Virus record (IMG/VR): IMGVR_UViG_2061766007_000036
Length of the DNA: 31,751 nt
Reading direction: 5' to 3' (one strand)
Source of the DNA: an uncultured virus (IMG/VR IMGVR_UViG_2061766007_000036)
Lineage: Duplodnaviria > Heunggongvirae > Uroviricota > Caudoviricetes
Below the pieces are notes generated by a model, which was not told the origin of the DNA, made no database searches, and saw nothing but the letters and a program-made list of their open reading frames with translations. The position numbers and the translations under genes are program-made. Shown here one piece after another: positions 8,531 through 25,576 of this stretch (position 1 is the first letter of the stretch; each line of letters begins with the position of its first letter).

Positions 8531-8642
8531 GCAAAAATCCTAAAAAATAATTATTTATTTTAAAGTTTTTCCGTCGTGCCTGCGCCTCTCGCCCGCAGAC
8601 GTATGGATTGATAATCCGCCCCGCCTAAAAAAAGATGGGCGC

Positions 8643-8858
8643 TTATGCGCCCAACGCTAAGTGTTCCTTTGCTTCTTTTGGCTCTTCTTCCTCCCAATAG
8701 GAGACGTTCTCCCAATCAAATGGGGTGTGTTCCCCAAAGCGCTTCTCTACAGGCATCCTATCTGTGAATTGCTTCACGATAGCGCCGTGGTGAATCATCT
8801 TGTACTGAAGGTAGTAGTACCCTGCATCGAACCATTCATCAAATAAGTGCTCGTACAT
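8643..8858 (-). CDS. Hypothetical protein, 71 aa
   Basis: AAGGAGG RBS. Confidence 0.75.
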   Translation of the reverse strand: MYEHLFDEWFDAGYYYLQYKMIHHGAIVKQFTDRMPVEKRFGEHTPFDWENVSYWEEEEPKEAKEHLALGA

Positions 8859-8879: not shown

Positions 8880-9026
8880 TCACGCCCAAGCCTTGTGCTT
8901 GGGCTTGCGGGAGAAACTCCCCTTTCCCTTCTTGGGCTTTACAGCGGAACCTCTCCGCTGAAACTGAAGGTACTCCCTCAGTTCCTCGCCCGTCTTTTTG
9001 TTTACTCTCGCATCAAAGTTCTTCAT
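8880..9026 (-). CDS. ArfA-like (alternative ribosome-rescue factor A-like) basic protein, 48 aa, not in ORF track
   Basis: MKNFDARVNKKTGEELREYLQFQRRGSAVKPKKGKGSFSRKPKHKAWA; KKGKGS[YF]xRKxKH signature; AAGGGAG RBS; promoter 9056-9084. Confidence 0.7.
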   Translation of the reverse strand: MKNFDARVNKKTGEELREYLQFQRRGSAVKPKKGKGSFSRKPKHKAWA

Positions 9027-9055
9027 CTCGGTGTCTCCCTTCACTTGATGGTCTT

Positions 9056-9084
9056 ATTATACCGTATATGTAGATATATGTCTA
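9056..9084 (-). promoter_or_regulatory. sigmaA promoter TAGACA-17-TATAAT
   Basis: Direct reading. Confidence 0.75.
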
Positions 9085-9169
9085 TTGGCAGAATGCACAA
9101 AAATCCTAATATATAATTATTTACTATTGACAGAAAAAGAGCACTCCCTCTCGGAAGTGCCCTCATCCG

Positions 9170-9682
9170 TCATGCGTAAACCAACTTATCGCAGAACGTT
9201 TCCATATGTGTAAGCAACGAAGGATTGCCCTCAGCAAGCCGTACAATCGCCCGTACGGCGCTTTTGCGTTTCCTGTACATTTTCCTTTGGTACACCGTGA
9301 AGTTGATGTAGAAGTCCTCTGTGCGCCCGTACAGAGCCTCTGTGGTCTCCGTGGGTGTCGCACCGTCAAGATACCGCATCTGAACCACCAACCGCTCGTC
9401 GGGTTCTAACTTGCTAGCGATGTACTCGATGTTGTGCTTGTGCTCCTCGTGAAGCGCCTGTATATCCCGAAGGTAACTGAGCAAGCCGTCCTCTTGGCTC
9501 AGCATAATCCCTATCTTATCGGGGTCTGCACTCGGCGCTCTCGGCATCCCGTTAAGGCTTGGTGACGATACCGACTCCATACGGTCGCTTAAGACTCGCA
9601 CTCGTTCCGACTGATTCTCTATCTCTCGCTCCGTCCGTCGATATGCTTCCAACCACTGGGTTACGATGTCTTGGCTGCTCAT
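9170..9682 (-). CDS. RinA/ArpU-like phage transcriptional regulator
   Basis: WLEAYR...GMPR...LEPDERLVVQMRYLDG; last gene of replication operon. Confidence 0.7.
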   Translation of the reverse strand: MSSQDIVTQWLEAYRRTEREIENQSERVRVLSDRMESVSSPSLNGMPRAPSADPDKIGIMLSQEDGLLSYLRDIQALHEEHKHNIEYIASKLEPDERLVVQMRYLDGATPTETTEALYGRTEDFYINFTVYQRKMYRKRKSAVRAIVRLAEGNPSLLTHMETFCDKLVYA

Positions 9683-9692
9683 AGATTGATAA

Positions 9693-10067
9693 TCAGAACG
9701 GGAGGTCTTCCGAAGCGTCAACGTCGTCGTACTTCTCCGCTCTGTTCCCGTTCGGGGAGTCGCAGAACTCTACACTTTCCACCACGAACTCCACGTTTCT
9801 CCTGCGCTCGCCGTTCTTGTTCGTCCACTCACGAACCTGCGGGGTCGACTCAACAAGAATCTTCTTGCCTTTCGTGAAGTACTCGGCGATGAACTCCGCC
9901 GTGTTCTTCCACGCCACGTAGTCAAAGAAGTCCGTGATTTTGTTTCCGTTCGCATCTTTGAACCGTCTGTCAACTGCTAACACGAAACTAACCACAGGTG
10001 TGCCCGTGTCCGTGTGCCTCAGCTCGGGGTCAGCCGTGAATCGTCCTGTCTGAATACATCTGTTCAT
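9693..10067 (-). CDS. ssb: Single-stranded DNA-binding protein
   Basis: MNRCIQTGRFTADPELR...TDFF..VAW; acidic DLPF tail. Confidence 0.95.
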   Translation of the reverse strand: MNRCIQTGRFTADPELRHTDTGTPVVSFVLAVDRRFKDANGNKITDFFDYVAWKNTAEFIAEYFTKGKKILVESTPQVREWTNKNGERRRNVEFVVESVEFCDSPNGNRAEKYDDVDASEDLPF

Positions 10068-10070
10068 ATC

Positions 10071-10514
10071 TCATTTCTCCTTTTTGTTGTAAACTCTGAG
10101 CTTTCCGCCGGGCCAGTAATCCTGCCGGTCGGGCATCCGTTTGAAAATCTTGTCCCAAAACCTCTGCGCAGGTATGTTCTTGTCCATCACGAACAGGCAG
10201 GGGTCTTTCGCCTTGTACATGTTCAGCGTTTTCTTAACCAGTTCGGTCGCCAATCCCTTTCGGCGGCTCTCGGGTCTGACGTACAGGTCTTGAATGAAAA
10301 TGTCGCAGTCCGGGTCACACTCCGGCGGGAAGGACACGATGATGAATCCTGCCGCTTCCTTGTCGTCGGGGTCGTAAGTTAACCGATACGTGATGTACGG
10401 GTCGCTCTGCATCTCCTTCAGCCAAATGACGATGTCCTGTTCGGGAACCTCGTCCACACCGTCCATCCTCTGCAACTGATGTTTATAGTCTATATACAAC
10501 TCCTCGGGAACCAT
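10071..10514 (-). CDS. GNAT family acetyltransferase
   Basis: LYVRPESRRKGLAT acetyl-CoA motif; NxPAxxFW. Confidence 0.85.
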   Translation of the reverse strand: MVPEELYIDYKHQLQRMDGVDEVPEQDIVIWLKEMQSDPYITYRLTYDPDDKEAAGFIIVSFPPECDPDCDIFIQDLYVRPESRRKGLATELVKKTLNMYKAKDPCLFVMDKNIPAQRFWDKIFKRMPDRQDYWPGGKLRVYNKKEK

Positions 10515-10518
10515 TTCC

Positions 10519-11304
10519 TCACCCCATTCCGTAACTCTTTGCAAGGACGTAGTCCCTCAGAGCGTCTGTTACATTCTTAGCCGTAGTCACTCCACAGGAA
10601 GGCCACGCAACCATCTTCTTAAACTCGCACTTCGCAAGTTCTCCAAGAGTACCAATCCCCTGTTCCCGCAGAACACGCCTGCCTCGAACCGAAATCCCTC
10701 CGACTTCGTTCACAGAGTTATTGATAATCCCCACCTTCTCCAACGCTGCTTCCAGTTCCCCGGCTTCCAGCATCTTCAGTGTTGCGTCGTAGTTGTCCTG
10801 CGCCTTCTTTAAGCCACTCAGCAGAATCTGCATCGTCCCGTCGTGCTTCATCTTCCGCAGAGCGTCCGCCTTAATCTGCTGAACCCTCTGCCGTGTGATG
10901 CCCATCTGCTCGCTCGTAGCCTTCATGTTCAGTCCGTTCTTATAGAGCAATTCAAGCACAATCCTTGTCCGTTCGTCAAGGCGAGACCAAAAGTGCTCCA
11001 CAGTCTCCTCCCAATCCTCGGGAAGTACGAAAGCGTTAGTACCCGTCAGTTCTTCGTAGAAGTTGTACGGGAATTCCGTCTTCTTCTTTGCCCCCTTATT
11101 GTGCGTCGCTTGGTACAGACCTCGCTTCGTGAAGTTCGTTCCGTCGGGAGCGTCGGGGATATTCGCCCACCACTTCACAGCCATGACTCCAATGAAACTG
11201 TTCGTCTTTGCGTCAAAGTAGTCACAGTTCGCCATGCTCTTTCCTGCCACGAGAAACCGTCCGCTCTTCGCAGGGAGCCTCTCATCAACACTCACCCATT
11301 GCAT
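10519..11304 (-). CDS. DUF551-like + sigma70 region-4 HTH + RNA polymerase alpha-CTD-like fusion protein
   Basis: WVSVDERLP; GITRQRVQQIKADALRKMK; ISVRGRRVLREQGIGTLGEL...CGVTT. Confidence 0.75.
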   Translation of the reverse strand: MQWVSVDERLPAKSGRFLVAGKSMANCDYFDAKTNSFIGVMAVKWWANIPDAPDGTNFTKRGLYQATHNKGAKKKTEFPYNFYEELTGTNAFVLPEDWEETVEHFWSRLDERTRIVLELLYKNGLNMKATSEQMGITRQRVQQIKADALRKMKHDGTMQILLSGLKKAQDNYDATLKMLEAGELEAALEKVGIINNSVNEVGGISVRGRRVLREQGIGTLGELAKCEFKKMVAWPSCGVTTAKNVTDALRDYVLAKSYGMG

Positions 11305-11342
11305 ACATTCTTCTCTCCTTGTTTCATCGTTTGATAATCCGC

Positions 11343-12179
11343 TCATAGCCCAAGTAATTCCTCCATCTCCGCCTTCGTGTCGACCAACGCCTTCTTGCGT
11401 CTGTCTCCACCCTTTACTTCGTAAGGCACGCACATATCGTACAGCCTGCTGAACAACCGTTTGTCCCTAATTTCGGCGGGTCTAATCAGTTCGTCAGCCG
11501 TCAGATTCGTAGTTACAATCAGTGGCTTGCCCGAAGTGTACCGTGCATCAACGACCATCTGAACCGTGCCTGCCACGTATTCCGTGTTCCGCTCGGCTGA
11601 AAGGTCATCTATCACCAACAGCTCGTACTTGTCCAAATCGTTCAAGAACGACATCTTCTTATCAGCGTCCAACAACGCAGTCGTCAGCCGTGAGAAGTTC
11701 GTCATCATGCAAGGAACGCCTTTGTCTATCAGAGCGTTTACTATACAGGCGGCGTAGAAGGTCTTGCCCGTCCCTACCGTCCCGTACAGCAGTAGTCCTT
11801 TGCCACGTTCCCGCATCTCCGAAAACTTCTCGACGTATCGCCTGGCCAACTTCGACAGTTTCGTATCCGGGCTGTCATCGTTTGAAAATGTCATCCCTCG
11901 AACCTGCATGTCCTGCATACCGTCTCGCCGCAGTCTCTCTGCTTCCCGCACTCGGCTTTCTGCCCGTTGGCGCTCCTCCTCGGCATCGTACTCGTTCTGT
12001 CGGCATTCACACAGGCAACTTACCGTGAGTGTTTTCCCGTCAAGTTCCACCGTGGTCTGCTTCGGGGTATGGCACTTACCGCAGTAAAGCAATCCGTCTT
12101 GTTCGTAGTCTCCGTCTTCTCGCTCAATGACTTCAGCGGATTTCTCCGCTATCTCATTAAGCAAATCCATAAAACCCAT
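11343..12179 (-). CDS. DnaC/IstB-like helicase-loader ATPase
   Basis: CGKC/CEC Zn motif, GTVGTGKT Walker A, LLVIDD Walker B, TTN. Confidence 0.92.
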   Translation of the reverse strand: MGFMDLLNEIAEKSAEVIEREDGDYEQDGLLYCGKCHTPKQTTVELDGKTLTVSCLCECRQNEYDAEEERQRAESRVREAERLRRDGMQDMQVRGMTFSNDDSPDTKLSKLARRYVEKFSEMRERGKGLLLYGTVGTGKTFYAACIVNALIDKGVPCMMTNFSRLTTALLDADKKMSFLNDLDKYELLVIDDLSAERNTEYVAGTVQMVVDARYTSGKPLIVTTNLTADELIRPAEIRDKRLFSRLYDMCVPYEVKGGDRRKKALVDTKAEMEELLGL

Positions 12180-14827: not shown

Positions 14828-15157
14828 ATGTTGACCGTAGATTACGAAGTTTTCCGAGAAAGGCTCAGACAGTTACGGGACAGCAAGGGACTGAATTCGC
14901 AGGCGTTGGCAGACTACACCGGTATGTCGGCAGCTGCTATTTCACGCTATCTTAACGGTTCCCGCATCCCCGACATCAACGCTATCCTTACGTTTGCAGA
15001 CTTCTTTGGCGTGCGAGCGGAGTGGATGTTCGGCATCGAACCCGTGGAAAGGTACGAAGATGTGGCAGACGAAGACCGCAAAAGAATCGACCTGTTCAAG
15101 TTGGCTTCCGAAAACGACAAGGCAGTCATCGACTTCATACTGTCGAAGTACAAATGA
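14828..15157 (+). CDS. XRE-family HTH repressor (CI-like)
   Basis: RLRQLRDSKGLNSQALA...AISRYLNGSRIP...ADFFGV; divergent from replication operon; coupled to integrase. Confidence 0.88.
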   Translation: MLTVDYEVFRERLRQLRDSKGLNSQALADYTGMSAAAISRYLNGSRIPDINAILTFADFFGVRAEWMFGIEPVERYEDVADEDRKRIDLFKLASENDKAVIDFILSKYK

Positions 15158-16776
15158 AAGCCGCTATCTACACTCGTGTCTCGACGACCCATCAGATTGA
15201 TAAAGACAGCCTGCGGGTACAGCAGCGGGAGCTGCTACAGTACGCCGAGCTGCTGTTGGGCACAAAGGAGTGCGTGGTGTTTGAGGACGCAGGATTCAGT
15301 GCAAAGAACACAGACCGCCCGAAGTTCCAAGAGATGATGTCCCGCATCCGTGCGGGCGAGTTCACTCACCTGCTTGTGTGGAAGATTGACCGTGTGTCCC
15401 GAAATCTTTTGGACTTCACGAATATGTACGCCGAGTTAAAGGCGTTAGGAGTCACCTTCATCTCGAAGAACGAGCAGTTCGATACGTCGTCCGCCATCGG
15501 CGAGGCAATGTTGAAAATCATACTGGTCTTCGCCGAACTGGAAAGGAACATGACATCCGAACGTGTGACTGCCGTAATGCAGTCCCGAGCCAAGAGCGGA
15601 GCGTGGAATGGGGGTCGTGTCCCCTACGGGTACTCTTACGACAAGGAGACGAAGGAGTTTTCCCTTAACAGACAGGAGTCCCTCGTTGTTAAAAAGTTAT
15701 TTAGGACGTACGAAGCGACCAAGTCCATAATAGCTACTACCCGAAACTTAAACGAAGCAGGAATCCGAACGAGAGCAGGAGCAAGTTGGAGCACCATCGG
15801 AGTTCACAAGATTCTGCGAAACCCATTCTACATCGGAACCTATCGATACAACGTCCACAGCCCGGACGGGAAGCACCCGGAGGAAGAATGGACGTTGATT
15901 GAAAATCATCACGTCCCGCTCATCGAAGCCGCTCAGTTCGACCGAGTCCAGGAAATCTTGTCACGGAACCAGAAGCTCAACCCGGATGACGTTAACTACT
16001 TCTCCCCGCATATCTACATCTTCCACGGGCTGTGTTTCTGCGGACACTGCGGGTCTAAGATGACACCCAACTCGTGCAAGCCCACGAAGTACGGGCATGC
16101 ATCCGCCACCTACGGGTGCGCCAAGAGGCGAAGCAAGGCATCGTATTGTTCTAACCGTTACCTCAACGAAGAAATCCTTGCCGATTTTGTCTTCACCGTC
16201 ATCCACAACTTACTGTCCGTTTCTGCCGAGCCACCGTCAGAAGGCTCTCTGTTCGCCTTACAAAGCCTTTTGCTCAAGGGGGTAAAAGAACCCAAGGGAA
16301 TAGAAGAACGCTCTCTCCGTGCCGTCTATGAAGCCACAGGCGGTAATTCTGCTCCGATAGAGTTCTCTCCTCGCTTTGACGCTTATGACCGTGAGGAATC
16401 CGAAATGCTATCGACCGAGTTGAAACGCACCGAGTCCACGCTCAAGAGGACGAAACGTTTGTACGTGAACGGGGGCATCGACGACGAGGAGTACGCTGCT
16501 CTGACTGAGGCGTTAGACAGTCAGATTGATAATCTGAAGCGGCGTCAGTCCGAGGCTGCTGTTGAAGCCGACGAGTTCCGTGAAAAGGCATCGTACTATT
16601 TGTTGGCAGACATGCTAACGACCGAGCCGTTTAACCCCAAAAAGTTCAACTCCGTCGTGTCCAAGAAAGCGAGAGAGCAGTTCGTACAGCAGGTTATTAA
16701 ACGCTTAATCATCTCCGATGGTCACGTTACCGTGATGGAGTTCCGTAGCGGACTCACGATAGAGTTCAAGTATTAG
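15154..16776 (+). CDS. Large serine recombinase (integrase)
   Basis: AIYTRVST catalytic motif, DRVSR, recombinase domain PYGY, Zn ribbon CGHC...C. Confidence 0.95.
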   Translation: MKAAIYTRVSTTHQIDKDSLRVQQRELLQYAELLLGTKECVVFEDAGFSAKNTDRPKFQEMMSRIRAGEFTHLLVWKIDRVSRNLLDFTNMYAELKALGVTFISKNEQFDTSSAIGEAMLKIILVFAELERNMTSERVTAVMQSRAKSGAWNGGRVPYGYSYDKETKEFSLNRQESLVVKKLFRTYEATKSIIATTRNLNEAGIRTRAGASWSTIGVHKILRNPFYIGTYRYNVHSPDGKHPEEEWTLIENHHVPLIEAAQFDRVQEILSRNQKLNPDDVNYFSPHIYIFHGLCFCGHCGSKMTPNSCKPTKYGHASATYGCAKRRSKASYCSNRYLNEEILADFVFTVIHNLLSVSAEPPSEGSLFALQSLLLKGVKEPKGIEERSLRAVYEATGGNSAPIEFSPRFDAYDREESEMLSTELKRTESTLKRTKRLYVNGGIDDEEYAALTEALDSQIDNLKRRQSEAAVEADEFREKASYYLLADMLTTEPFNPKKFNSVVSKKAREQFVQQVIKRLIISDGHVTVMEFRSGLTIEFKY

Positions 16777-16979: not shown

Positions 16980-17008
16980 TTTACAACAATTCCCGACTAT
17001 GTTATAAT
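16980..17008 (+). promoter_or_regulatory. sigmaA promoter TTTACA-17-TATAAT
   Basis: Direct reading. Confidence 0.7.
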
Positions 17009-17029
17009 ACATGTCGAGAGGTGAGATAA

Positions 17030-17212
17030 ATGGGAGTCACGACCCAACCCAAGCGGTTCATCACCAAGAAAGCATATGACCGCATCACCGTGCTTGTCCG
17101 TCACGATTTCAAGGACACCATAGAACGGCATGCAGAAGAACGAGGCGAGTCTGTAAACGCCTTTGTGCGTCGTGCGCTCTATGCCACTATGGAACAGGAT
17201 AATAACAAGTAA
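17030..17212 (+). CDS. Ribbon-helix-helix protein, paralogue
   Basis: YDRITV...HAEERGESVNAFVRRA. Confidence 0.8.
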   Translation: MGVTTQPKRFITKKAYDRITVLVRHDFKDTIERHAEERGESVNAFVRRALYATMEQDNNK

Positions 17213-17282
17213 GAGCGGAGCCGTCAGACTCCGCCCTGTTTTGTAAAGGGAGCGTGGGCTCCCAAGGTTGTTGTCGCCTTTT

Positions 17283-17747
17283 TTAGGCATCCTCTTCCTC
17301 GTCGTCTTCCCACTCGTCCTCGTAGTAGTCGTCGTCATCGTCATCGGTGGGCTCTCCGTACTCGAACGGGCCTGCGCACTTGTACACCGAGCCACGCTTC
17401 GGCACTTCGTACTGTGCGAGGAATTCCATGTCACAGCACTTATCGGCGACTTCCTTAAGAAGGTCTTCGTACTCGCCGTCGCTCTTAATCGTGCGAATCT
17501 CGAGCAGTTCATCGAGTTCGGCGTAGCGGAACAGCCAATTGGCGTAGGAAGAGAGGTCGTTGCACCATCCCTTGAGCCAATACCTGTTGTCGAACACGTC
17601 GCCGTCGTTGTACCACTTGTAAACGAGTTTGTTCACAGCGGTAACAATCTGCGAAGCCATCGTTTCCCCTTCGCCCCTAACGGGCAGGTACTTCGCATCG
17701 ACAGCATCAAACTTCGGGTCATTGTAGTAGTTCCAATCTACGCTCAT
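17283..17747 (-). CDS. Hypothetical protein with highly acidic C-terminal tail
   Basis: AGGAGG RBS; tail DDDDDDYYEDEWEDDEEEDA. Confidence 0.8.
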   Translation of the reverse strand: MSVDWNYYNDPKFDAVDAKYLPVRGEGETMASQIVTAVNKLVYKWYNDGDVFDNRYWLKGWCNDLSSYANWLFRYAELDELLEIRTIKSDGEYEDLLKEVADKCCDMEFLAQYEVPKRGSVYKCAGPFEYGEPTDDDDDDYYEDEWEDDEEEDA

Positions 17748-17748
17748 G

Positions 17749-17934
17749 TTAGCATCCTCCTTCTCTGCATTTAGCAATGTATCTTCCGTTTGTGGAGAGT
17801 TCCCACTTGAGGTCTTCCTTGTTGTACCGACCCCACCAAGCGCCCTTCGACGTGAAGAGGTCGTACAGAGCCGTCTTGCAGTCTTTCTTAATCTTCACCT
17901 TGTAGAGGGCTTCCAAAGCCTTAATCTCTTTCAT
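17749..17934 (-). CDS. Hypothetical protein, 61 aa
   Basis: GAGGAGG RBS; promoter 17975-18003. Confidence 0.75.
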   Translation of the reverse strand: MKEIKALEALYKVKIKKDCKTALYDLFTSKGAWWGRYNKEDLKWELSTNGRYIAKCREGGC

Positions 17935-17974
17935 AGGGTTCCTCCTCGTTTGTTATCATGTCCTTACATTACAT

Positions 17975-18003
17975 ATGATACCACACACATACATAGATGT
18001 CAA
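17975..18003 (-). promoter_or_regulatory. sigmaA promoter TTGACA-17-TATCAT
   Basis: Direct reading. Confidence 0.8.
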
Positions 18004-18059
18004 CACCTAATATTAAATTTTTAGGATAATTTTTATAATAATTTTGGAGGGAAATAAAA

Positions 18060-18248
18060 ATGGCAACATCAGAAGCACAGAAGAAATACGCAAAGAAGCA
18101 CTTTGAAAAACTCGACACCGTCACCATCCGCCCGCTGAAAGGCACGAAGGAGCGGTGGCGCAAGTACGCCGCTCGGACTGGTCAATCTCTGACGCAGTTC
18201 ATCATCGACGCAGTCGAGGTCGCCATCATGCACATGGACGAGGATTGA
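18060..18248 (+). CDS. Ribbon-helix-helix protein, third paralogue
   Basis: SEAQKKYAKK...GTKE...GQSLTQFIIDA. Confidence 0.8.
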   Translation: MATSEAQKKYAKKHFEKLDTVTIRPLKGTKERWRKYAARTGQSLTQFIIDAVEVAIMHMDED

Positions 18249-18273
18249 TAATCCACCCCGTCGACGTACACAC

Positions 18274-18314
18274 AAAAAAAGAAGGACTGCCGGGTCTTCC
18301 CGACAGTCCTTTTT
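18274..18314. terminator. Bidirectional terminator
   Basis: A7-AAGGACTG...CAGTCCTT-T tract between convergent genes. Confidence 0.75.
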
Positions 18315-18350
18315 GTTGTTGCTGTAGTAATCTCCGTAACTCGCATAAGT

Positions 18351-18542
18351 TCATGGCTCGTACACCAACTCGTAAATGCCCAACAGGGTGTATCTGTACT
18401 GACTCGGCAGAGACGCATAGTAGTTGAACATGTCTTTTATTGCGTCTATGCTCATCGGGCACTCCGCCTTTATGGTCATTGTTTTACGCTTGTTCCATCC
18501 CATATGCCCCTGTTCTCTGTACATCACTTTGTATTTCTTCAT
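18351..18542 (-). CDS. Hypothetical protein
   Basis: GAGGAGG RBS. Confidence 0.7.
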   Translation of the reverse strand: MKKYKVMYREQGHMGWNKRKTMTIKAECPMSIDAIKDMFNYYASLPSQYRYTLLGIYELVYEP

Positions 18543-18556
18543 CTCGTGTTCCCTCC

Positions 18557-18877
18557 TCAATCAGTCGTCCTGTAGAAGTACGCAAGGTCTTCGCCCTTGA
18601 GGTTTTCTACGGCGTAACCGTCAGCCTTCTCCCAAAGGTCGTTGTAGACCTTGGCGAGCGTGTCGTTGTGTCCGTAGTGCTCCCAAATCTTCCAATTGAG
18701 AGCCATCACCAACTCGGTGAGGTAGACCACGTCGTCCTTCCATCCCTCAAAGGCTCTGCGGAAGGTGTCCTTCACAGCTCCGACCCCGAAGCAGTCAGCA
18801 ATGCTGAAGTCCTCGTAGAAGGTCGTCTGAGGCTTGTAGCCCGTCATCGCTTCAATGTTCCAAGTTTTAATCGTCAT
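18557..18877 (-). CDS. Conserved phage hypothetical protein
   Basis: GYKPQTTFYEDFSIAD...YLTELVMALNWKIWEHY; promoter 18928-18956. Confidence 0.85.
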   Translation of the reverse strand: MTIKTWNIEAMTGYKPQTTFYEDFSIADCFGVGAVKDTFRRAFEGWKDDVVYLTELVMALNWKIWEHYGHNDTLAKVYNDLWEKADGYAVENLKGEDLAYFYRTTD

Positions 18878-18927
18878 AGTAAAGTTCCTCCTTAAAAAGT
18901 TCGGTTCGTTCTCTTGTCTACGACATT

Positions 18928-18956
18928 ATAATACCACACATATATACTCCTGTCAA
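18928..18956 (-). promoter_or_regulatory. sigmaA promoter TTGACA-17-TATTAT
   Basis: Direct reading. Confidence 0.8.
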
Positions 18957-19380
18957 GCGTTTTTCTGCAAAAATTATTATTTTTCTCTTAAAAATGGGGC
19001 AAAAATAGCCTAAAATTAGGTTTTTATGTTAAAAAATGGTCTTGTCATGGGATTTTATTAGATTTTAAGGACGATTTGTTGCCTATACGGTAAGATTTTG
19101 TAAGAAGATTAAGAGACACGAATTTTAGATTTTTGTAAGCATCGGGCGTAGTTTACAGCCTAAAAACGCCTTAAAAACAGCAAAAAAGCCCCTTCAAACG
19201 CCTTGAAGAGGCTCGAAATCCCTATATTTTCCTACATTTTCTTGCAGATTGGTAATCTTCAACGGATAAACATCGCATCAGCAAATATATACGGAAATTG
19301 AACGTCAAGAAGTATTGACGAACGGAAAGGAATAATCTTTAATTTGAGTGCAAATAACATCACAGCAACTGTAGCAGGCG

Positions 19381-19614
19381 TTACCGGGTGTCAATCGAAG
19401 ATTGATAATCCTCATCCGGGACGTACTCGATGAGGTCTTCCACTCTGCACCGTAAGATAGCGCAGAATTTGTTTATCGTGTCCAAGGACACTAACCCACC
19501 ATTCCGCAGATTCTGTATCGACCTTTCCCCGAGTATGTGCTCGTTACGTAATCGTGTAGACGAATACCCCGCTTTCTTCAGTTCCGACAAAACGTTCACC
19601 TTGTAAACAATCAT
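19381..19614 (-). CDS. Cro/C1-type HTH protein
   Basis: IQNLRNG...SLDTINKFCAILRCRVEDLIEYVPD. Confidence 0.85.
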   Translation of the reverse strand: MIVYKVNVLSELKKAGYSSTRLRNEHILGERSIQNLRNGGLVSLDTINKFCAILRCRVEDLIEYVPDEDYQSSIDTR

Positions 19615-19652
19615 TTCTTCCTCCAAAAACACAAAAAACTCTAAAAATAGTG

Positions 19653-19681
19653 TTGACATACACTACATATAGTGTTATAAT
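19653..19681 (+). promoter_or_regulatory. sigmaA promoter TTGACA-17-TATAAT containing inverted repeat ACACTA-N4-TAGTGT
   Basis: Direct reading. Confidence 0.85.
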
Positions 19682-19724
19682 AATAGCGTCAAAAGACAAC
19701 AGAAGGCGAAAGGAAGAGTGAGAC

Positions 19725-19940
19725 ATGAGCGAACTCGAGAAGAGATTACAACGGAACGAAGCGGTAGGCAAAGCACAGGTGAAGGTTTTCCGAATTGAGG
19801 CGTTGGTTGACTTAGTGTCGGACTACCTAACCAACCACGCAAACGAACCGTCAGAGGAACGGTTCGACAAGGTGTCGGATGTGATAGAGGTTGTCTCCGA
19901 AGAGGTAAAGAAACTCGAAGAGATGCTGTTTGACCTGTAA
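19725..19940 (+). CDS. Acidic helical hypothetical protein, 71 aa
   Basis: Follows promoter; terminator ~19946-19973. Confidence 0.75.
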   Translation: MSELEKRLQRNEAVGKAQVKVFRIEALVDLVSDYLTNHANEPSEERFDKVSDVIEVVSEEVKKLEEMLFDL

Positions 19941-19994
19941 GAACAGGGGCGGAGAAATCCGCCCCCTTCTTTTGCGCTTATGCGAGATTGAAAA

Positions 19995-20255
19995 TCACTG
20001 CACCTCTTTGTCCCAGTCGTCAACCGGGGCTCCGATTTCCTTGAACTGTTCTCTCATGAAGTCCTTCATTTCTGCGAAGCGTGAACGGAACTCCGCCAAA
20101 TCCTCGACCGCTGTAACAGAGTCCGCTAATTCTTTGTATGCGCAGGAGTTAAGGTACATGAAGTGGGACAGTCCTCTAACAAACGCCTTCTGTTTTCTCG
20201 AAGACCTCATCAGAGCAAGAACCGCAATCGCAAGTATTGCGACAAGAATCTTCAT
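19995..20255 (-). CDS. Hypothetical protein with N-terminal membrane anchor
   Basis: MKILVAILAIAVLAL; TAATG coupling. Confidence 0.7.
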   Translation of the reverse strand: MKILVAILAIAVLALMRSSRKQKAFVRGLSHFMYLNSCAYKELADSVTAVEDLAEFRSRFAEMKDFMREQFKEIGAPVDDWDKEVQ

Positions 20256-20428
20256 TACCATAGTCCCACCGCCCATCCTACGAGCAGAACATCGGTAAGT
20301 CCGTCATCTTTAGGCTCATACTTAAAACAAATATCATCTGTTCTCAGTCTCTTCTGCTTGCGAACGCAGAAAAGGCTGTCCTTTTTTATCGTGCAATAGC
20401 CGCAATCACGGCAAGTGTATTTCCTCAT
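20255..20428 (-). CDS. Cys-rich hypothetical protein, 57 aa (MRKYTCRDCGYC...), not in ORF track
   Basis: AGGAGG RBS. Confidence 0.65.
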   Translation of the reverse strand: MRKYTCRDCGYCTIKKDSLFCVRKQKRLRTDDICFKYEPKDDGLTDVLLVGWAVGLW

Positions 20429-20446
20429 CAGCATCCTCCTATTGAT

Positions 20447-20567
20447 AATCCCCCGCAGGGGTCTGCGCTACGGTGGGTGTAAGGTAAACAAGACAACAAA
20501 CAACTTTGAAGAGGTACTTCAAGGCGAAAGTGTAGAGACACCATAGCGCAGGCTTCCACAGGGGATT
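20447..20567 (-). ncRNA. Candidate hairpin sRNA with loop antisense to early-gene leader consensus
   Basis: Stems 20556-20567/20447-20459 and 20539-20551/20463-20475 with four G.U pairs on - strand; promoter TTGACT(20600-05)-17-AATAAT(20577-82) directly upstream. Confidence 0.7.
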
Positions 20568-20601
20568 GCCGTTATTATTATTCCCTATTTTATTGATAAA
20601 G

Positions 20602-21132
20602 TCAAGTGACCAAGGGCTCGATTAAGTCCCACACCGTTTTGTCCTCAAGGAACAAGTCCATGTAGTCCTTCGCCTGTCTGACGCTGATTGCCCGTACGAA
20701 GTCCTTGAGTCCCGTGTACTCCTCGTTGTAGTACACAAGGAAGAACTCGTTGTTGTGGTCAAGGTACAGCTCCGTTGCACAGTCGTACTCGTACGTGTCC
20801 TTTCCAACGTCTCCGCAGACGTAGAATGAATCTTCCGTGGAGAACATCCTGCGGTCGTAGACACCTCTTACCTTTCTGAGCATCCCTTTCCGTGCAGGCA
20901 GGAAGAACTTCTTTTTCTCTGTATCGTAGTAGTAAACACGAACTCCGCTAAGCGTCAGAAGGTCGTTGTACTCCTCGGCGGAAACCGTGTGTCTCTTTAT
21001 CTTTCCGTTCAGTTTTTGCGCAGACCACCGTTCCTCGGGGAACGCCTCGTTAGCCTTTTCCGCCAACTCTTTCTGCGTGATGTGCATGCTCTTAAGTAAG
21101 CCTTTAAAAGTGTTCTCTAAATCGAATCTCAT
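20602..21132 (-). CDS. Protein with N-terminal XRE-like HTH
   Basis: ITQKELAEK...WSAQKLNGKIK. Confidence 0.7.
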   Translation of the reverse strand: MRFDLENTFKGLLKSMHITQKELAEKANEAFPEERWSAQKLNGKIKRHTVSAEEYNDLLTLSGVRVYYYDTEKKKFFLPARKGMLRKVRGVYDRRMFSTEDSFYVCGDVGKDTYEYDCATELYLDHNNEFFLVYYNEEYTGLKDFVRAISVRQAKDYMDLFLEDKTVWDLIEPLVT

Positions 21133-21223
21133 CGTATCCCTCCTCTCATTTCTATGTTGCCACAGTCTGGGCGGAATGTCAAGTAATTATCCTACAATCT
21201 ATTGATAATCCGCCGACCGAGGT

Positions 21224-21439
21224 TCATTTCGCAACGAACCTCAGCATCGCCAAGAGATACAGCAGGATAAACCCGAACGCAAATACTGCAATCCCCTGTA
21301 TCAGTATTACGAGGGCATATCCTACCGCTCTCATCTTTCTGCGTCTGTTAATAGTCTTGGTCATTGCGAAACGCCTGCGTTGCGCCTTCACAGCGTCTGT
21401 GTGGGCGTTTGTAATCTTGCAGAACACTTCCGTATCCAT
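21224..21439 (-). CDS. Small membrane protein
   Basis: C-terminal hydrophobic helix; RBS. Confidence 0.7.
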   Translation of the reverse strand: MDTEVFCKITNAHTDAVKAQRRRFAMTKTINRRRKMRAVGYALVILIQGIAVFAFGFILLYLLAMLRFVAK

Positions 21440-21443
21440 TGAT

Positions 21444-21746
21444 TCACGCCCCCTTCCTGTAGTAGCGAATAGCGCTGTAGCAGTCGCTTCCGTCTTCCTC
21501 TGTCACATCCACGCTCACGAGGCTGAAGCCAATCAGACCAAGCACCCAATCGCACCGCAGGTGCTCGTGCTTCCAATCGCCCCAATGAATCTCTACGGAA
21601 ATGTCCTTGGTTCCGTACATCATCGGCTCAGCGTCTCCGTAGACATCGTGCTTGTTCAGAAGCCTCTCGGCTTCCACAGCCATCTCGAACCGTTCATTGA
21701 ACCTCTTGTTCAGTTCGTCTCTATCCATCTCGTACAGGTCAAACAT
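21444..21746 (-). CDS. Conserved phage hypothetical protein
   Basis: VEIHWGDWKHEHLR...EEDGSDCYSA; promoter 21791-21819. Confidence 0.8.
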   Translation of the reverse strand: MFDLYEMDRDELNKRFNERFEMAVEAERLLNKHDVYGDAEPMMYGTKDISVEIHWGDWKHEHLRCDWVLGLIGFSLVSVDVTEEDGSDCYSAIRYYRKGA

Positions 21747-21790
21747 CTCAAAGTCCTCCTTCAAAAGTCTTATTCCCTTACTGCTCTTAA

Positions 21791-21819
21791 ATTATACCAC
21801 ATATATCTACATATGTCAA
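21791..21819 (-). promoter_or_regulatory. sigmaA promoter TTGACA-17-TATAAT
   Basis: Direct reading. Confidence 0.85.
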
Positions 21820-21908
21820 CACCCTATATTAAATTTTTAGGATTATTTTTTGACGGAGAAAGGTGGCTTGACCGATTGATAATCCTGCACGCCAAAAAAA
21901 GAAGAGGC

Positions 21909-22136
21909 TCATGCGAGCCCCTTCTCCGCAAGGAAGGTCTGAAGGTCAATCGCCTTCCCCTCAAAGAACTTTGCGTACTTGAGGAGTTCCTCGTGCGTCC
22001 ACACGAAGTTGAAGCGGAGCCCTCTGCACTTGAGTGCGGAAGCGAAATCCTTCTTGTATTTGAAGGCATCGCTTTTCACACAAGCGTAGGCTTTTTTGTT
22101 TTTCGTGCCGAAGCACACCGTGTAGTAAGTATTCAT
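21909..22136 (-). CDS. Hypothetical protein (MNTYYTVCFG...)
   Basis: AGGAGGT RBS before ATG 22136. Confidence 0.75.
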   Translation of the reverse strand: MNTYYTVCFGTKNKKAYACVKSDAFKYKKDFASALKCRGLRFNFVWTHEELLKYAKFFEGKAIDLQTFLAEKGLA

Positions 22137-22297
22137 AGAAGTACCTCCTGTTAAGTTGTATTGTTCCTTACTGTCTATATGATACCACACATACACGGCA
22201 AAAGGTCGCCCGACAGGCGACTTTGAAACTTTCGGAAATCTTTTCGCAAATCCGTCTATAGCGGATTGATAATCTTCCCCCATAAAAAAGAGGCGCT

Positions 22298-22570
22298 TTA
22301 CAGCGCCTCTGCGAGGAATTTCCTCTTTAGCAGGGTCTCCTCAGCCCGAGTGTCGGGAAGGTAGTAGTCGTACCCATCAGCGGTGTCGTTGTACTGAAAC
22401 ACCCTAATGAGCCAATCCCCATCGGGTAGGGTTCCCATCATATAGTAGGAAGTCCCTGTGCGGAACGCCTTTTCGAGGACATAACCGAGTTCGGCATTGG
22501 TGTAAACCTCACCGTTCAGTTTGCCTTCCGTAAGGCGCATCAGCCAATATGCAGTTTCGTGCAGAGTCAT
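22298..22570 (-). CDS. Hypothetical protein, 90 aa
   Basis: AAGGAGGT RBS. Confidence 0.8.
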   Translation of the reverse strand: MTLHETAYWLMRLTEGKLNGEVYTNAELGYVLEKAFRTGTSYYMMGTLPDGDWLIRVFQYNDTADGYDYYLPDTRAEETLLKRKFLAEAL

Positions 22571-22608
22571 TGTATGACCTCCTTATGAAGTTTTGATGTG
22601 GTGGGGTA

Positions 22609-22839
22609 TCAGAACCCCACCGTTACCTTTCCGTCTTTCTGAAGGTTGACAGGCTCTCCAATGAGGCATTCAACCATCTCCTTGCAAGCAATCATTGCAT
22701 GCATCTTGGACATCATCCATTCGTTCTCCACGGAGTCTTTCGCTTTGCCTTCCGCTCGCTTCTCCCACTCCTTGAAGTCGTCCATCATGGACTGCAAGTA
22801 GCGGAGCATTCCGTATTTCATCAGTTCGCCATCAGTCAT
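22609..22839 (-). CDS. Hypothetical protein, 76 aa
   Basis: AAGGAGG RBS. Confidence 0.8.
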   Translation of the reverse strand: MTDGELMKYGMLRYLQSMMDDFKEWEKRAEGKAKDSVENEWMMSKMHAMIACKEMVECLIGEPVNLQKDGKVTVGF

Positions 22840-22851
22840 TTTAGTTCCTCC

Positions 22852-23100
22852 TTAAGCAGTAAACGGTTTTGTTTTGCACTCTATAAAAATTCTTCTCGTG
22901 TAATTGTTCGCTTCGCACCACACCCAAATCTCACGGAAGTTCTTCGTGAGAAGTTCTTCGGGAATTTCCTCTACCGTGTTGAAACCGCCCTCTTGGTAGA
23001 AGTCGTCCATGTGGTTGCTTCTGTACACTCTCACATAGTATTTGACCGTCCATCCGTAGGAAGGCTTCTCGGTCTTAACTCTTTCTTTAATCGTCATCAC
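22852..23100 (-). CDS. Hypothetical protein, 82 aa
   Basis: Coupled to upstream stop; GGAGGT RBS. Confidence 0.75.
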   Translation of the reverse strand: MMTIKERVKTEKPSYGWTVKYYVRVYRSNHMDDFYQEGGFNTVEEIPEELLTKNFREIWVWCEANNYTRRIFIECKTKPFTA

Positions 23101-23423
23101 AGCACCTCCTGCACCTGCGAGAATCCGAAGAATCTCGCCTTGTAAATGGCTCCGTCACCCTTCGCCCCATAAATGAGGTCGCATCCGAACAGTGCCTTGG
23201 AGCCGTGAATCACTTCGTAGCCGACTTTCTTCCAATCAGCCCAAGTGCGAGTCTCCTCGGTCACTCCCGCTTCAGCCTTCGCTTCAGCAATCCTACGAGC
23301 GTTCTCGTCAACCGCTTTAGCGGAAATCCACGCTCTGTGAAGGCACTCGCCGAAAGGAAGTTCCTTCTTGTTCTTTCTGTAGTTGTTCCATGCATTCAGC
23401 ATAATGTTTCGCAGGTCGTACAT
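23097..23423 (-). CDS. Phage protein with ArdC-N-like ssDNA-binding motif
   Basis: TWADWKKVGYEVIHGSKA...FFGFSQV resembles the ArdC N-terminal motif. Confidence 0.55.
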   Translation of the reverse strand: MYDLRNIMLNAWNNYRKNKKELPFGECLHRAWISAKAVDENARRIAEAKAEAGVTEETRTWADWKKVGYEVIHGSKALFGCDLIYGAKGDGAIYKARFFGFSQVQEVL

Positions 23424-23471
23424 TGTAAGTCCTCCTTCAAAGGTCGTGTTCTTCATCTCTTCTGTGTCTCT

Positions 23472-23501
23472 ATTATAATCCCACACATATATATCTGTCA
23501 A
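23472..23501 (-). promoter_or_regulatory. sigmaA promoter TTGACA-18-TATAAT
   Basis: Direct reading. Confidence 0.75.
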
Positions 23502-23597
23502 GCACAAATATGCAATTTTTAGGATTTTTTATGATGTAAAAGTGTACAAGATTCGCATGCAATATATCTACATATTTCAACATAGTGCACAAAAGGC

Positions 23598-23712
23598 TTG
23601 ACATGCGGTAAATTACTCGTTAGAATAAGGATGTGGTTTTTCTGTGGATTGCTGTTTTGTTTATGCATGATTACTCCTTTCGGCACGAGAGTCTCCTTCG
23701 GGAGGCTCTTTT
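23598..23712 (+). ncRNA. Candidate ~80-nt sRNA (promoter TTGACA-17-TAGAAT; terminator 23688-23712) with anti-SD/anti-AUG segment
   Basis: Promoter, CATGATTACTCCTTTCG, UUCG hairpin + T tract; no + strand ORF fits. Confidence 0.55.
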
Positions 23713-23781
23713 GCTTTAGATTGATAATCCGCCCCACCAACAAAAAAAGGAGCCCCGAAGGGCTCCATCGTCTGTCTGCCG

Positions 23782-24024
23782 TCACGGCAGTTCCTTCTCC
23801 AACTTTTTGCATACGGTCTTCACCCACTCATTGCGTCCGTCCACGCCGTAGGCATCGGAAGCTGCGTACCGAATGAACTCACATACAAGTTCCATCCACT
23901 CGGACTGAAGAGCTCTGTGCTCTCGGCTCATCGCCTCACAGAAGCCTTTTCTGCTGAAGCCGAACGGGTTAAGAGCGTCGGTAATAGCGGAAGCAAGTTC
24001 CTTCTCACGGGTCATGTCTTTCAT
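23782..24024 (-). CDS. Hypothetical protein, 80 aa
   Basis: AGGAGGT RBS; promoter TTGACA-17-TATATT at 24065-24093. Confidence 0.8.
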   Translation of the reverse strand: MKDMTREKELASAITDALNPFGFSRKGFCEAMSREHRALQSEWMELVCEFIRYAASDAYGVDGRNEWVKTVCKKLEKELP

Positions 24025-24167
24025 AGTAGTACCTCCTAAAGAATGTTATCTTGTTTACGGTACTAATATACCATATATTTACATAGATGTCAAGCAACAG
24101 AATGAAACTGTAACCTTTTGTAACCATCCACTTCGAGGTCGTATCGAGGCGTTGATTGATAATCCTG

Positions 24168-24265
24168 TTGACACGCCCGATGTAGGTGTGGTACTATACG
24201 AGTACATTTTAATAGTGCGACACATCTATCCGCAGGAGGCGCAGTCGAAAGACTGCGTCTCTTTG
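24168..24265 (+). ncRNA. Candidate ~60-nt sRNA (promoter TTGACA-18-TACTAT; 11-bp GAAA-tetraloop hairpin 24236-24261)
   Basis: Promoter plus hairpin, no ORF, flanked by motif copies 24154 and 24278. Confidence 0.45.
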
Positions 24266-24360
24266 CATGTGCAGGTGGATTGATAATATTGCGTGCCGAG
24301 CCACAGAACATGCAATCATCCGACACCACAAAAAATATTTAAAAATAATTAAAAAATGTG

Positions 24361-24389
24361 TTGACATATGTAGATATATGTGGTAAGCT
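24361..24389 (+). promoter_or_regulatory. sigmaA promoter TTGACA-17-TAAGCT (early family, + orientation)
   Basis: Direct reading; TGTGG extension. Confidence 0.75.
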
Positions 24390-24434
24390 ATAGACACTGA
24401 AAGAGGAACCGATAAAAAAGAAGGAGAACCTGCT

Positions 24435-24725
24435 ATGAAACTGTTTTCTTATGTGAAAGTGACCTGCAACTACATTTGGCAGAGCAAAGACGACTCTTCC
24501 GAGTACACCTACGGCTCCGTGCATGGTGCTCTGACGTTCTTGGAAGAGAACAAAGATGAGCTCCGTTGGTGCTCCGTAGAGGGCTACGATGTGTGCCCGT
24601 GCTACGAAGGGGACGAAGGCGGTCGGCTCTACCACGGGATGACTTACTTCAAGTATTGGACTCCCGAAAGAGAGCAGATAACGAACAACACGGACGAAGA
24701 CACGTTCATTGCCGTGACGATTTAA
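24435..24725 (+). CDS. Hypothetical protein, 96 aa
   Basis: AAGGAG RBS. Confidence 0.8.
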   Translation: MKLFSYVKVTCNYIWQSKDDSSEYTYGSVHGALTFLEENKDELRWCSVEGYDVCPCYEGDEGGRLYHGMTYFKYWTPEREQITNNTDEDTFIAVTI

Positions 24726-24740
24726 GAAGGAGGACTGTAC

Positions 24741-24971
24741 ATGAACAAGATTCGCAGAGCACAGATTCAGAAGTTGATAGACAAGATTGACGAAGTGATG
24801 TTTGACCTCGAGGACATTCAGTACGATGAAGAGTCCGCCCGTGACAGCATTCCCGAGAACCTGCAAGGCTCCGAGAGGTACGAGAAGGCAGAAGAAGCGT
24901 GCGACAACCTTGAGTCAGCAATGGACTACCTTGAGGAAGTCAAAGACTATTTAGAGGAGGCAATAGCATAA
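24741..24971 (+). CDS. Highly acidic conserved phage helical protein
   Basis: MNKIRR...EESARDSIPENLQGSERYEKAEEA. Confidence 0.85.
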   Translation: MNKIRRAQIQKLIDKIDEVMFDLEDIQYDEESARDSIPENLQGSERYEKAEEACDNLESAMDYLEEVKDYLEEAIA

Positions 24972-25264
24972 TGGCGACACCGATTTACGCACCGCACCTT
25001 TTCCCCGAAAACGCCGAAGCGAAGTACAACGAATTCATGATGCGAATTGCTACGTGCGTATACGCACGCAACGGGGAAACCGCTTGGCTGTATGGAACCG
25101 ACAACCTCGTAGGTTACCTCAACGAGCTGTGCGACTACGGCCCGTACACACGCTCCGACGCACGGGAGGTCGAGAGGCTGATGCTCGAACTTCAGAGAAG
25201 CAACTACCGTACAACGGAAGACGACTACTACGACGTTCCCATATACCCCGACCTTCCCATATAA
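24971..25264 (+). CDS. Hypothetical protein, 97 aa
   Basis: TAATG coupling; GAGGAGG RBS. Confidence 0.75.
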   Translation: MATPIYAPHLFPENAEAKYNEFMMRIATCVYARNGETAWLYGTDNLVGYLNELCDYGPYTRSDAREVERLMLELQRSNYRTTEDDYYDVPIYPDLPI

Positions 25265-25285
25265 AACCCATATAGAAGCAGTAGA

Positions 25286-25320
25286 AACCCGCCCTCCGAA
25301 CGGAGAGCGGGTTATTTTTT
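25286..25320. terminator. Terminator between convergent operons
   Basis: AACCCGC-CTCC...GGAG-GCGGGTT + T tract. Confidence 0.75.
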
Positions 25321-25576
25321 ACTCTGTATCCATCTTTGCCCCGCAGGACGGGCAGAACGGCGTTTTCTGCACGTTTTCCCCTCCGCAGGCACTGCACCTC
25401 ACCCTGTTCCAATATCCTTCCAAACGAAGCCACTTGGCACTGTACGCACCCGTGATACTCTGCGACTGTATGGAATCGAGGATTCTGTTCAAGTCCCTTC
25501 CGCCCTTGGAACAGAAGGAGTAGCATCCGAGATGTTCGTTTATGTATTTACGTAGCGTATTAATCTCTATGACCAT
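25319..25576 (-). CDS. Zn-ribbon phage protein
   Basis: CSACG...FCPSCGAKM. Confidence 0.75.
   Translation of the reverse strand: MVIEINTLRKYINEHLGCYSFCSKGGRDLNRILDSIQSQSITGAYSAKWLRLEGYWNRVRCSACGGENVQKTPFCPSCGAKMDTE

Follow-up and report, generated by a model that had tools for sequence, protein, structure and literature searches.

The stretch of DNA considered here, referred to throughout as the window, is the 31,751-nucleotide record of an uncultured virus of the Caudoviricetes (IMG/VR IMGVR_UViG_2061766007_000036). Its minus strand carries a 48-amino acid open reading frame (ORF), the subject of this analysis, whose product resembles ArfA, the alternative rescue factor for stalled ribosomes. 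An earlier note had drawn attention to this ORF as a phage early gene with a promoter and ribosome-binding site (RBS) of its own, to the motif its product shares with Escherichia coli ArfA, and to the hairpins of its mRNA. The coordinates of all features are collected in Table 1.

The arfA-like gene and its expression signals

Translation of the minus strand yields the same 48-residue protein as that reported in the earlier note. The aligned position of its Shine-Dalgarno site, AAGGGAGA, reads AAAGGAGA in the closest relative, an IMG/VR contig designated L001. An alternative GTG start at 9044, which would extend the protein to 54 residues, is without a Shine-Dalgarno site. A scan of the region for promoters returned four promoter-like sites, compared with 1.3 +/- 1.2 in shuffled sequence, and at the position of the predicted sigma-70-type promoter of the ORF L001 has a perfect TTGACA-17-TATAAT. 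The proposal of an ORF with its own promoter and RBS is thus borne out by the signals themselves and by their conservation in L001, and that of a phage early gene by its position in the early/replication region.

The coding sequence (CDS) differs from that of L001 at 13 of 147 nucleotides, 12 of the differences being synonymous and one non-synonymous. The intergenic flanks are far more diverged than the CDS, with the terminator, promoter, RBS and a companion ORF all retained. The pattern of substitution shows the ArfA-like ORF to be a real gene under purifying selection; the phage is a temperate one of the gut, and in its early/replication region the gene is served by its own predicted promoter. 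A terminator-like hairpin with a T-run separates the unit from the replication operon upstream, and L001 has a hairpin and T-run at the same place, but a different hairpin. A second such hairpin closes the unit after the companion ORF, and the presence of terminator-like hairpins on both sides marks out a self-contained bicistron in the phage early region.

The protein belongs to a large family. The identical sequence is recorded from 19 contigs, and a word-indexed search with it returned 14 homologues. Searched against 1.84 billion representatives, its profile matched 288 representative clusters at E ≤ 1e-3, a number that falls to 105 when the threshold is tightened to E ≤ 1e-10. A scan of viral contigs located 58 family loci, in nearly all of which an ATG stands behind a Shine-Dalgarno-like sequence, and a scan of genomes found at least 11, a lower bound because one peptide pattern alone was used. 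In PHROGs v4, residues 14-46 of the window protein match phrog_37108 (E 7.1e-10), to which that database assigns no function; the link to ArfA is new here. A match to DUF6103 (PF19598; E 0.006) was dropped as due to chance, being found in one of 47 members, and megablast with 7.5 kb of the window gave no match among cultured phages.

Homology to ArfA

The Pfam model of ArfA, PF03889, aligns residues 28-45 of the window protein with model positions 27-44 of 44 (E 2.8e-5). This is the match that the earlier note had proposed looking for, although at 23.9 bits it lies under the 25.5-bit gathering cut-off. At E ≤ 0.01, 38 of the 47 family members in the alignment match the same model, the lowest E being 2.2e-8, and four of the 14 close homologues carry a precomputed match to it. 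Among five large phage records, four contain a match, two of them marked as over the cut-off (26.5 and 25.3 bits, the latter so marked as 26 bits with neighbours in frame) and two below it (22.1 and 21.9 bits). Of 14 control genomes, that of E. coli alone exceeds the cut-off.

Direct comparison with the product of E. coli K-12 arfA by BLASTP showed 11 of 15 residues to be identical (KKGKGS(F/Y)xRKxKH), in agreement with the shared motif previously noted. A phmmer search of the PDB with the single window protein gave ArfA chains only (E about 0.5), and a profile of 40 family sequences gave six distinct ArfA sequences at E 0.0017-0.0029, the next match having an E of 0.49. Besides ArfA chains, these searches returned one unrelated capsid protein. 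BrfA chains were absent from both sets of results, the thresholds being E ≤ 10 for the single protein and E ≤ 1 for the profile.

Comparison of alignments carries the relationship further. Against an alignment of 12 enterobacterial ArfAs, the subfamily to which the window protein belongs (subfamily A) was matched by hhalign with 94.1% probability and an E of 1.3e-7, window residues F22-W47 corresponding to ArfA F25-R48. A second phage subfamily, B, has the motif INPIAR...RRR..VVPPKKGKGSY and is mostly found on contigs without tRNAs. It matches ArfA with 95.4% probability (E 1.9e-8) over 35 ungapped columns, from N14 to R48, and matches subfamily A with 98.2% probability (E 3.8e-14), so that a chain of homology runs from ArfA through subfamily B to subfamily A. 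By these profile comparisons, window residues from about 22 to 47 are homologous to ArfA residues 25-48, and the earlier description of the protein as ArfA-like is upheld. The family is also, as judged by the searches of the PDB, nearer to ArfA than to BrfA, the factor native to the Bacillota.

Conserved residues and predicted structure

The C-terminal tail, KKGKGSFSRKPKH at residues 32-44, corresponds in sequence to the tail of ArfA that occupies the mRNA channel, including its KH motif. Residues K32, K33, G34, K35, G36, S37, R40 and K41 are invariant across the family alignment and K43 is nearly so. Positions of the N-terminal helix (K10, K11, E15, L16, Y19, F22, R24, R25, G26 and V29) are as invariant as those of the tail, a degree of conservation more in keeping with a specific partner than with the part of a simple basic plug. 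An AF2 model of the protein (pLDDT 77) consists of a helix at residues 13-25 followed by an extended basic tail and, at 48 residues, matches the ArfA core in size and shape. F22, which falls in this helix, aligns with ArfA F25, a two-residue insertion following it in the hhalign alignment. Foldseek found no match to the model in the PDB at E ≤ 10, as is expected for a 48-residue helix and tail.

Longer forms were also encountered. Locus L044, and likewise L045 and L046, encodes a 121-residue fused protein in which a C-terminal domain rich in Gly and Lys comes after the ArfA-like VVKPKKGKGSYTRKSK; one member of the alignment, presumably that of L044, matches PF23876 (DUF7230) at E 2e-6. C-terminally extended forms of 70-180 residues found in databases were rejected after 20 had been inspected by eye, the extension appearing to be run-through into tRNA or intergenic sequence and not conserved.

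Relatives in large phages lie in tRNA arrays

On the contigs of large phages (about 80-217 kb), the ArfA-like gene is embedded in arrays of tRNA genes on its own strand. Subfamily A is represented by 37 distinct proteins from 47 loci. A tRNA is present in the locus (~12 kb) for 27 of these proteins and within 500 nt for 17, while for 11 the next tRNA begins no more than 10 nt after the stop codon or overlaps it. Loci of this subfamily with tRNAs number 27 of 31 on contigs of at least 80 kb, compared with seven of 16 on smaller contigs; for subfamilies B and C the figure is four of 22. All five whole phage records examined carry their tRNAs (13-38 each) in a single array that spans 5-17% of the record, and in all five the ArfA-like gene is inside the array or no more than 100 nt from it, the records being not fully independent because their lineages are related. 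Cultured phages are represented by the Enterococcus phages VRE9_1-4, H1, EF1 and EF5 (134-142 kb), whose 48-residue homologue is listed as a hypothetical protein and is followed by tRNAs some 3 kb downstream; that of VRE9_2 is annotated phrog 37108 and has as its top match the EF1 protein MF001358_p60.

The junctions between gene and tRNA are of two types. According to Infernal, tRNA position 1 precedes the end of the stop codon by 10-15 nt in three loci (L006, L008 and L062) and follows the stop by 2-5 nt in five (L003, L009, L022, L030 and L036). The abutments in L011 and L025 are ARAGORN calls that fall below the Rfam gathering score.

Other RNA genes share these arrays. In L002, the ArfA-like ORF is followed downstream, at a distance of about 500 nt, by a phage transfer-messenger RNA (tmRNA) with the ARAGORN tag peptide DNSYFENHLAA, in an array of 27 tRNA genes, such that two routes of ribosome rescue are adjacent in one phage. 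Four of 11 loci scanned (L009, L025, L030 and L062) contain a ROOL RNA within the tRNA array, on the strand of the ArfA-like gene and 0.3-2.3 kb downstream of it. A drum RNA was seen in L030. Three of the ArfA-like-bearing arrays contain tRNAs with the anticodon CTA (called 'Pyl' by ARAGORN and resembling amber suppressors), and these, together with ORFs that read past their stop into apparent tRNA sequence, hint at phages with recoded stop codons.

Enzymes of RNA repair or processing are found as neighbours in the large phages: the tRNA-His guanylyltransferase Thg1, HAD_SAK_2, an RNA ligase and cREC_REC, and further a polynucleotide-kinase-like AAA_33/KTI12-like kinase, a beta-CASP/RMMBL RNase and a DUF2828/DUF7788 protein. 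No protein neighbour is conserved across the family, the clustering of flanking ORFs giving lineage-specific neighbours and HNH endonucleases. The window copy and that of L001 have no tRNA nearby. The array context of the relatives is the main new result of this work, and as evidence from gene neighbourhood it strongly supports a translation-related role.

Structure of the mRNA

The window CDS folds with a predicted energy of -58.0 kcal/mol (z -4.6), none of 200 dinucleotide shuffles being as stable; with the untranslated regions included the z value is -3.7. Compared with 500 synonymous recodings drawn from the codon usage of the window itself, the z value is -3.26 and one recoding is as stable. 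Four consecutive hairpins had been proposed in the earlier note. All four pairs are present in the sequence, and the first and fourth are kept in the minimum free energy fold. The second and third are not, their bases being taken up in a single long-range stem to which the two local hairpins are alternative pairings. The last hairpin does stand just 5' of the stop, as had been claimed: its stem of 8 bp, GCCCAAGC/GCUUGGGC, ends 1 nt before the UGA, and the last 45 nt of the CDS have a z value of -3.2.

Between the window and L001, all five substitutions in the three main stems keep pairing, each by way of a G-U wobble, and three changes in peripheral pairs disrupt it. With two sequences compared, the stem-preserving substitutions are suggestive at best of a conserved fold. 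Across 52 distinct family CDSs the median z value is -1.15, with 14 below -2; strong folding thus characterises the clade of the window and a few others and is no property of the family as a whole. A family-wide 3'-terminal hairpin was rejected, since z values below -1.5 were obtained for 14 of 52 members both for the last 45 nt and for the middle 45 nt (Wilcoxon p 0.34).

In bacteria, arfA is expressed from non-stop mRNA, produced by means of a hairpin within the ORF through RNase III cleavage or early termination, and is in consequence repressed by tmRNA; the hydrophobic C-terminal extension of its product is dispensable. The analogy drawn previously between this arrangement and the hairpins of the phage mRNA fails in the window. 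The window gene has a normal UGA straight after the core and no C-terminal extension, which leaves ArfA-style non-stop control unsupported in the window, and a cut within any stem of the CDS would remove core residues.

Surroundings of the gene and host

The companion ORF encodes an acidic protein rich in Trp and Tyr for which no Pfam or PHROG family was matched. Its relatives are the L001 copy, at the same place with 47% identity, and its own 90% cluster; tblastn over the collected family loci found it in none besides L001. The early region also encodes Sipho_Gp157, an Erf/Rad52-like annealase, a replisome organiser, a DnaC-like loader, proteins with sigma-70 region 4, a GNAT acetyltransferase and SSB, and is adjoined by a large serine recombinase. 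Beyond the recombinase lies a second block that includes a Cro/C1 helix-turn-helix protein and RusA along with the genes listed in Table 1, and which may belong either to the same phage or to an adjacent element.

Of the 20 sequencing runs listed as containing part of the stretch, all are of DNA or guessed to be so, with no RNA run among them; the DNA runs place the phage in bovine gut and other gut metagenomes. Its relatives point to a host among the Bacillota (Firmicutes), their metagenome-assembled genomes being labelled Bacilli and Clostridia, labels that may include phage contigs binned with hosts.

Table 1. Locations of features in the window and in related loci (L numbers)
Feature	Location	Strand	Remarks
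ArfA-like CDS, 48 aa	8880..9026	minus	ATG 9026, stop UGA 8882..8880
Shine-Dalgarno site AAGGGAGA	9034..9041	minus	7 nt 5' of ATG
Predicted sigma-70-type promoter, TAGACA-17-TATAAT	9056..9084	minus	11/12 matches
Terminator-like hairpin and T-run	9137..9164	minus	end of upstream regulator gene (9170..9721)
Companion ORF, 71 aa	8643..8858	minus	RBS AGGAGG, starting 9 nt after arfA-like stop
Terminator-like hairpin and T-run	8636..8653	minus	closes two-gene unit
mRNA stem-loop 1, 11 bp	8960..8985	minus	CDS nt 42-67, within codons 14-23
mRNA long-range stem 2	8910..8956	minus	CDS nt 71-117 (71-81 with 107-117), across KKGKGS codons
mRNA stem-loop 3, 8 bp	8884..8904	minus	1 nt 5' of UGA stop
GNAT acetyltransferase	10071-10544	minus	replication operon, just upstream of ArfA-like unit
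304-aa protein with sigma-70 region-4 domain	10519-11433	minus	replication operon, just upstream of ArfA-like unit
Large serine recombinase	15022-16776		
Second block	17000-31751		past recombinase
Thymidylate-synthase-like protein	25560-26504		second block
dATP/dGTP diphosphohydrolase N-domain protein	26829-27311		second block
tRNA-Thr(TGT)	30060-30134		second block; sole tRNA of window
DUF932	30169-31245		second block
tmRNA	L002:6650-6988		RF00023, 95 bits
ORF abutting a tRNA	L002:6160-6474		tRNA at 6475
ROOL RNA	L009:6878-7485; L025:4362-4973; L030:8364-9035; L062:7089-7710		RF03087, 280-341 bits
Drum RNA	L030:3347-3473		RF02958
tRNAs with anticodon CTA	L010:3613-3703; L030:2478-2552; L062:7818-7891		
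RNA-repair/processing genes	L005:3025-3894; L033:6128-6586, 10346-11578; L034:7693-8634, 9165-9575; L026:7797-9110; L032:3091-4551		
Members without KKGKGS	L031:6001-6126; L067:5980-6138; L068:1896-2051		
Fused form, 121 aa	L044:2120-2485		

Comparison with known rescue factors

On the ribosome, ArfA has a helix at residues 15-24, followed by F25 and a strand at 27-30 that dock RF2; 46-48 residues are ordered, and the mRNA entry channel is occupied by the tail, which bears the KH motif, as described in the structural account given in PMC8012679. According to the same account, residues 1-24, A18 included, are needed to activate RF2. The window protein resembles ArfA (also YhdL, PF03889) in its length of 48 residues, in its predicted helix followed by an extended basic tail and in the succession F-R-x-R ... 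KKGKGS(Y/F)xRKxKH, which places the KH motif equally distant from the N terminus. It differs from ArfA in that its family occurs in phages of gut Bacillota, the host being taken from relatives, and not in proteobacterial chromosomes, and in that its ORF stops right after the core, without the hydrophobic C-terminal extension. BrfA of Bacillus subtilis and ArfT of Francisella are likewise small rescue factors that depend on a release factor and place a basic tail in the mRNA channel; BrfA, the structure of which is PDB entry 6SZS, also possesses a KH motif, and its docking to RF2 is by beta-strand addition (as outlined in PMC8012679). PMC8012679 and PMC11633108, whose evidence includes a survey covering over 15,000 genomes, report that ArfA occurs in the β- and γ-proteobacteria only and that BrfA is limited to the B. 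subtilis group.

Phage genes have been annotated as ArfA before. Gp30 of pelagiphage HTVC027P, for which an ArfA domain is annotated, is transcribed both early and late (as given in PMC12753301), and g10 of Citromicrobium phage vB_CbaS-RXM is annotated as ArfA (as listed in PMC8953757). Both are small ORFs with the PF03889 motif, known by annotation only in the relevant parts of those papers. A tblastn search with L042, of subfamily B, matches both phages; one with a second member of that subfamily, L039, gave no match among cultured phages. Unlike the window gene, these genes belong to phages of the Alphaproteobacteria and have an INPIAR/NPxA-type N terminus that is closer to that of ArfA, and the group to which they belong (subfamily B/C) has the few tRNA neighbours mentioned above. 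The sections of PMC12753301 and PMC8953757 that deal with these genes do not describe the Bacillota-phage subfamily or its embedding in tRNA arrays, and in the open-access literature searched we found no functional study of a phage ArfA and no account of that subfamily or its setting. One member of the family is annotated in IMG as 'stalled ribosome alternative rescue factor ArfA'.

Proposed function and alternatives

The ArfA-like peptide probably helps ribosomes to stay working during infection, to judge from its homology and from the company that its relatives keep. As to how, we narrowly favour the view that it is an ArfA-type factor. The basic tail KKGKGSFSRKPKH would enter the mRNA entry channel solely when this is empty, as is the case in ribosomes that have run to the 3' end of a cut or truncated mRNA and stalled there. 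The conserved helix-F-RRG-x-x-V segment would then dock the RF2 of the host, which would hydrolyse the peptidyl-tRNA and free the ribosome. As the gene has a normal stop directly after the core, the active form would, unlike that of bacterial arfA, be made constitutively once the promoter fires, with no tmRNA gate. The phage would benefit by having free ribosomes at its disposal when non-stop complexes arise from infection, RNA turnover or the RNA-cleaving defences of the host. The tRNA, tmRNA and RNA-repair islands of the large relatives fit such a role, and the earlier suggestion of a link to defences that cleave mRNA or tRNA, although still an inference, is now better grounded by the RNA-repair neighbours.

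Several observations weigh against the proposal. The window protein falls short of the Pfam cut-off with the 18 last model positions aligned, no NCBIfam family matches it at E ≤ 10, and the motif shared with ArfA is short and rich in Lys and Gly. The alignment of subfamily A with ArfA needs a two-residue insertion within the segment of the putative RF2-docking strand. Both the Pfam and the hhalign alignments stop at F22/F25, leaving the N-terminal 21 residues with no similarity to ArfA 1-24; as the N-terminal helix is not ArfA-like in sequence, it is by inference that we assign RF2 recruitment to the peptide. No release-factor gene was found in the five large phage records, so any RF2 partner must be that of the host. 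Three members (L031, L067 and L068) keep the helix, KKTGEELQQYL.F.RRGS.V, and have lost KKGKGS, their tails reading, for example, ..SAKEYDRRKFKK and ..SKKKYNRQKFKR; these may be copies in decay or else a variant form with another kind of tail.

The divergence of the N terminus invites an alternative in which the peptide binds the mRNA channel without recruiting RF2, its different helix serving another outcome: blocking the access of tmRNA-SmpB so that phage proteins remain untagged, recruitment of some other factor, or shut-off by the plugging of host ribosomes. The C-terminal half alone aligns with ArfA, residues 1-24 of which are the RF2-activating part, and the N-terminal KKTGEELxEYLQF is unlike both that part and the INPIAR motif of subfamily B. 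Set against this are the alignment of F22 and RRG-x-x-V with F25 and the RF2-docking strand of ArfA, and the bridge to ArfA that subfamily B provides from N14 on. The neighbourhood of tRNA, tmRNA and RNA-repair genes, moreover, points to support of translation and not to shut-off, and the co-residence of a phage tmRNA in L002 speaks against an anti-tmRNA variant. We regard this alternative as unlikely.

It is more improbable still that the likeness to ArfA is convergent or compositional and that the peptide is a generic small basic nucleic-acid-binding protein of phages. A match of 18-24 low-complexity residues beneath the Pfam cut-off, a phmmer E of about 0.5 to the ArfA chains of the PDB and the lack of a structural match by Foldseek are what such an origin would lead one to expect. 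It accords poorly with profile-profile E values of 1e-7 to 1e-8 at collinear positions in proteins of equal length, with motif residues that are invariant and include the KH-equivalent K43-H44 (K43 itself nearly invariant), with a profile search of the PDB in which ArfA stands ahead of all else, with the PF03889 matches of 38 of 47 members and with the translation-linked genomic context. Lastly, the common promoter, flanking terminators and retention in L001 of the basic peptide and the acidic 71-residue ORF could suggest a cassette of the toxin/antidote-like or moron kind, with a peptide that is poisonous to ribosomes when not neutralised, but this is very improbable given that the companion is in no other collected locus, has no family and no relatives past its own cluster, and diverges fast (47% identity) beside a peptide that is 98% conserved, and that the ArfA-like gene stands alone between tRNAs in the large phages.

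The ArfA-type reading may be extended to the control of the gene in the large gut phages, where it could form part of a 'translation-maintenance island' made up of the tRNA array, tmRNA, ROOL RNA and RNA-repair enzymes. RNase P cleaves at tRNA position 1. In L006, L008 and L062, such a cut would delete the stop codon and leave a non-stop mRNA ending after codon 44-46, past the KH/KF motif; where the tRNA lies 3' of the stop, it would give an mRNA with almost no 3' untranslated region. The action of RNase III on arfA and brfA provides bacteria with tmRNA-sensed autoregulation, and tRNA processing would be the analogue of this in the phages, a route to ArfA-style control that is speculative. The small temperate phage of the window would then carry a stop-bearing, hairpin-ended copy, constitutive and derived. 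This extension, in which the mRNA's 3' end is fixed by RNase P, is doubtful. Other ORFs of the arrays abut tRNAs too, as in L002 (Table 1), and the tightness of the junction is therefore not unique to the ArfA-like gene.

Implications

The existence of an ArfA-homologous phage family of at least 288 representative clusters stands in contrast to the reported confinement of ArfA to the β- and γ-proteobacteria. As the family includes genes of cultured Enterococcus phages, it is directly testable. If the proteins are active, phages of the Bacillota would bring with them an RF2-dependent rescue factor of their own, free of the tmRNA gate and often located in islands of tRNA and RNA-repair genes, and ribosome rescue would be linked to the arms race over RNA-cleaving defences. 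The family would, moreover, supply naturally occurring minimal ArfA variants adapted to a variety of RF2s and ribosomes, and help to show the purpose of the small ORFs that lie within phage tRNA arrays.

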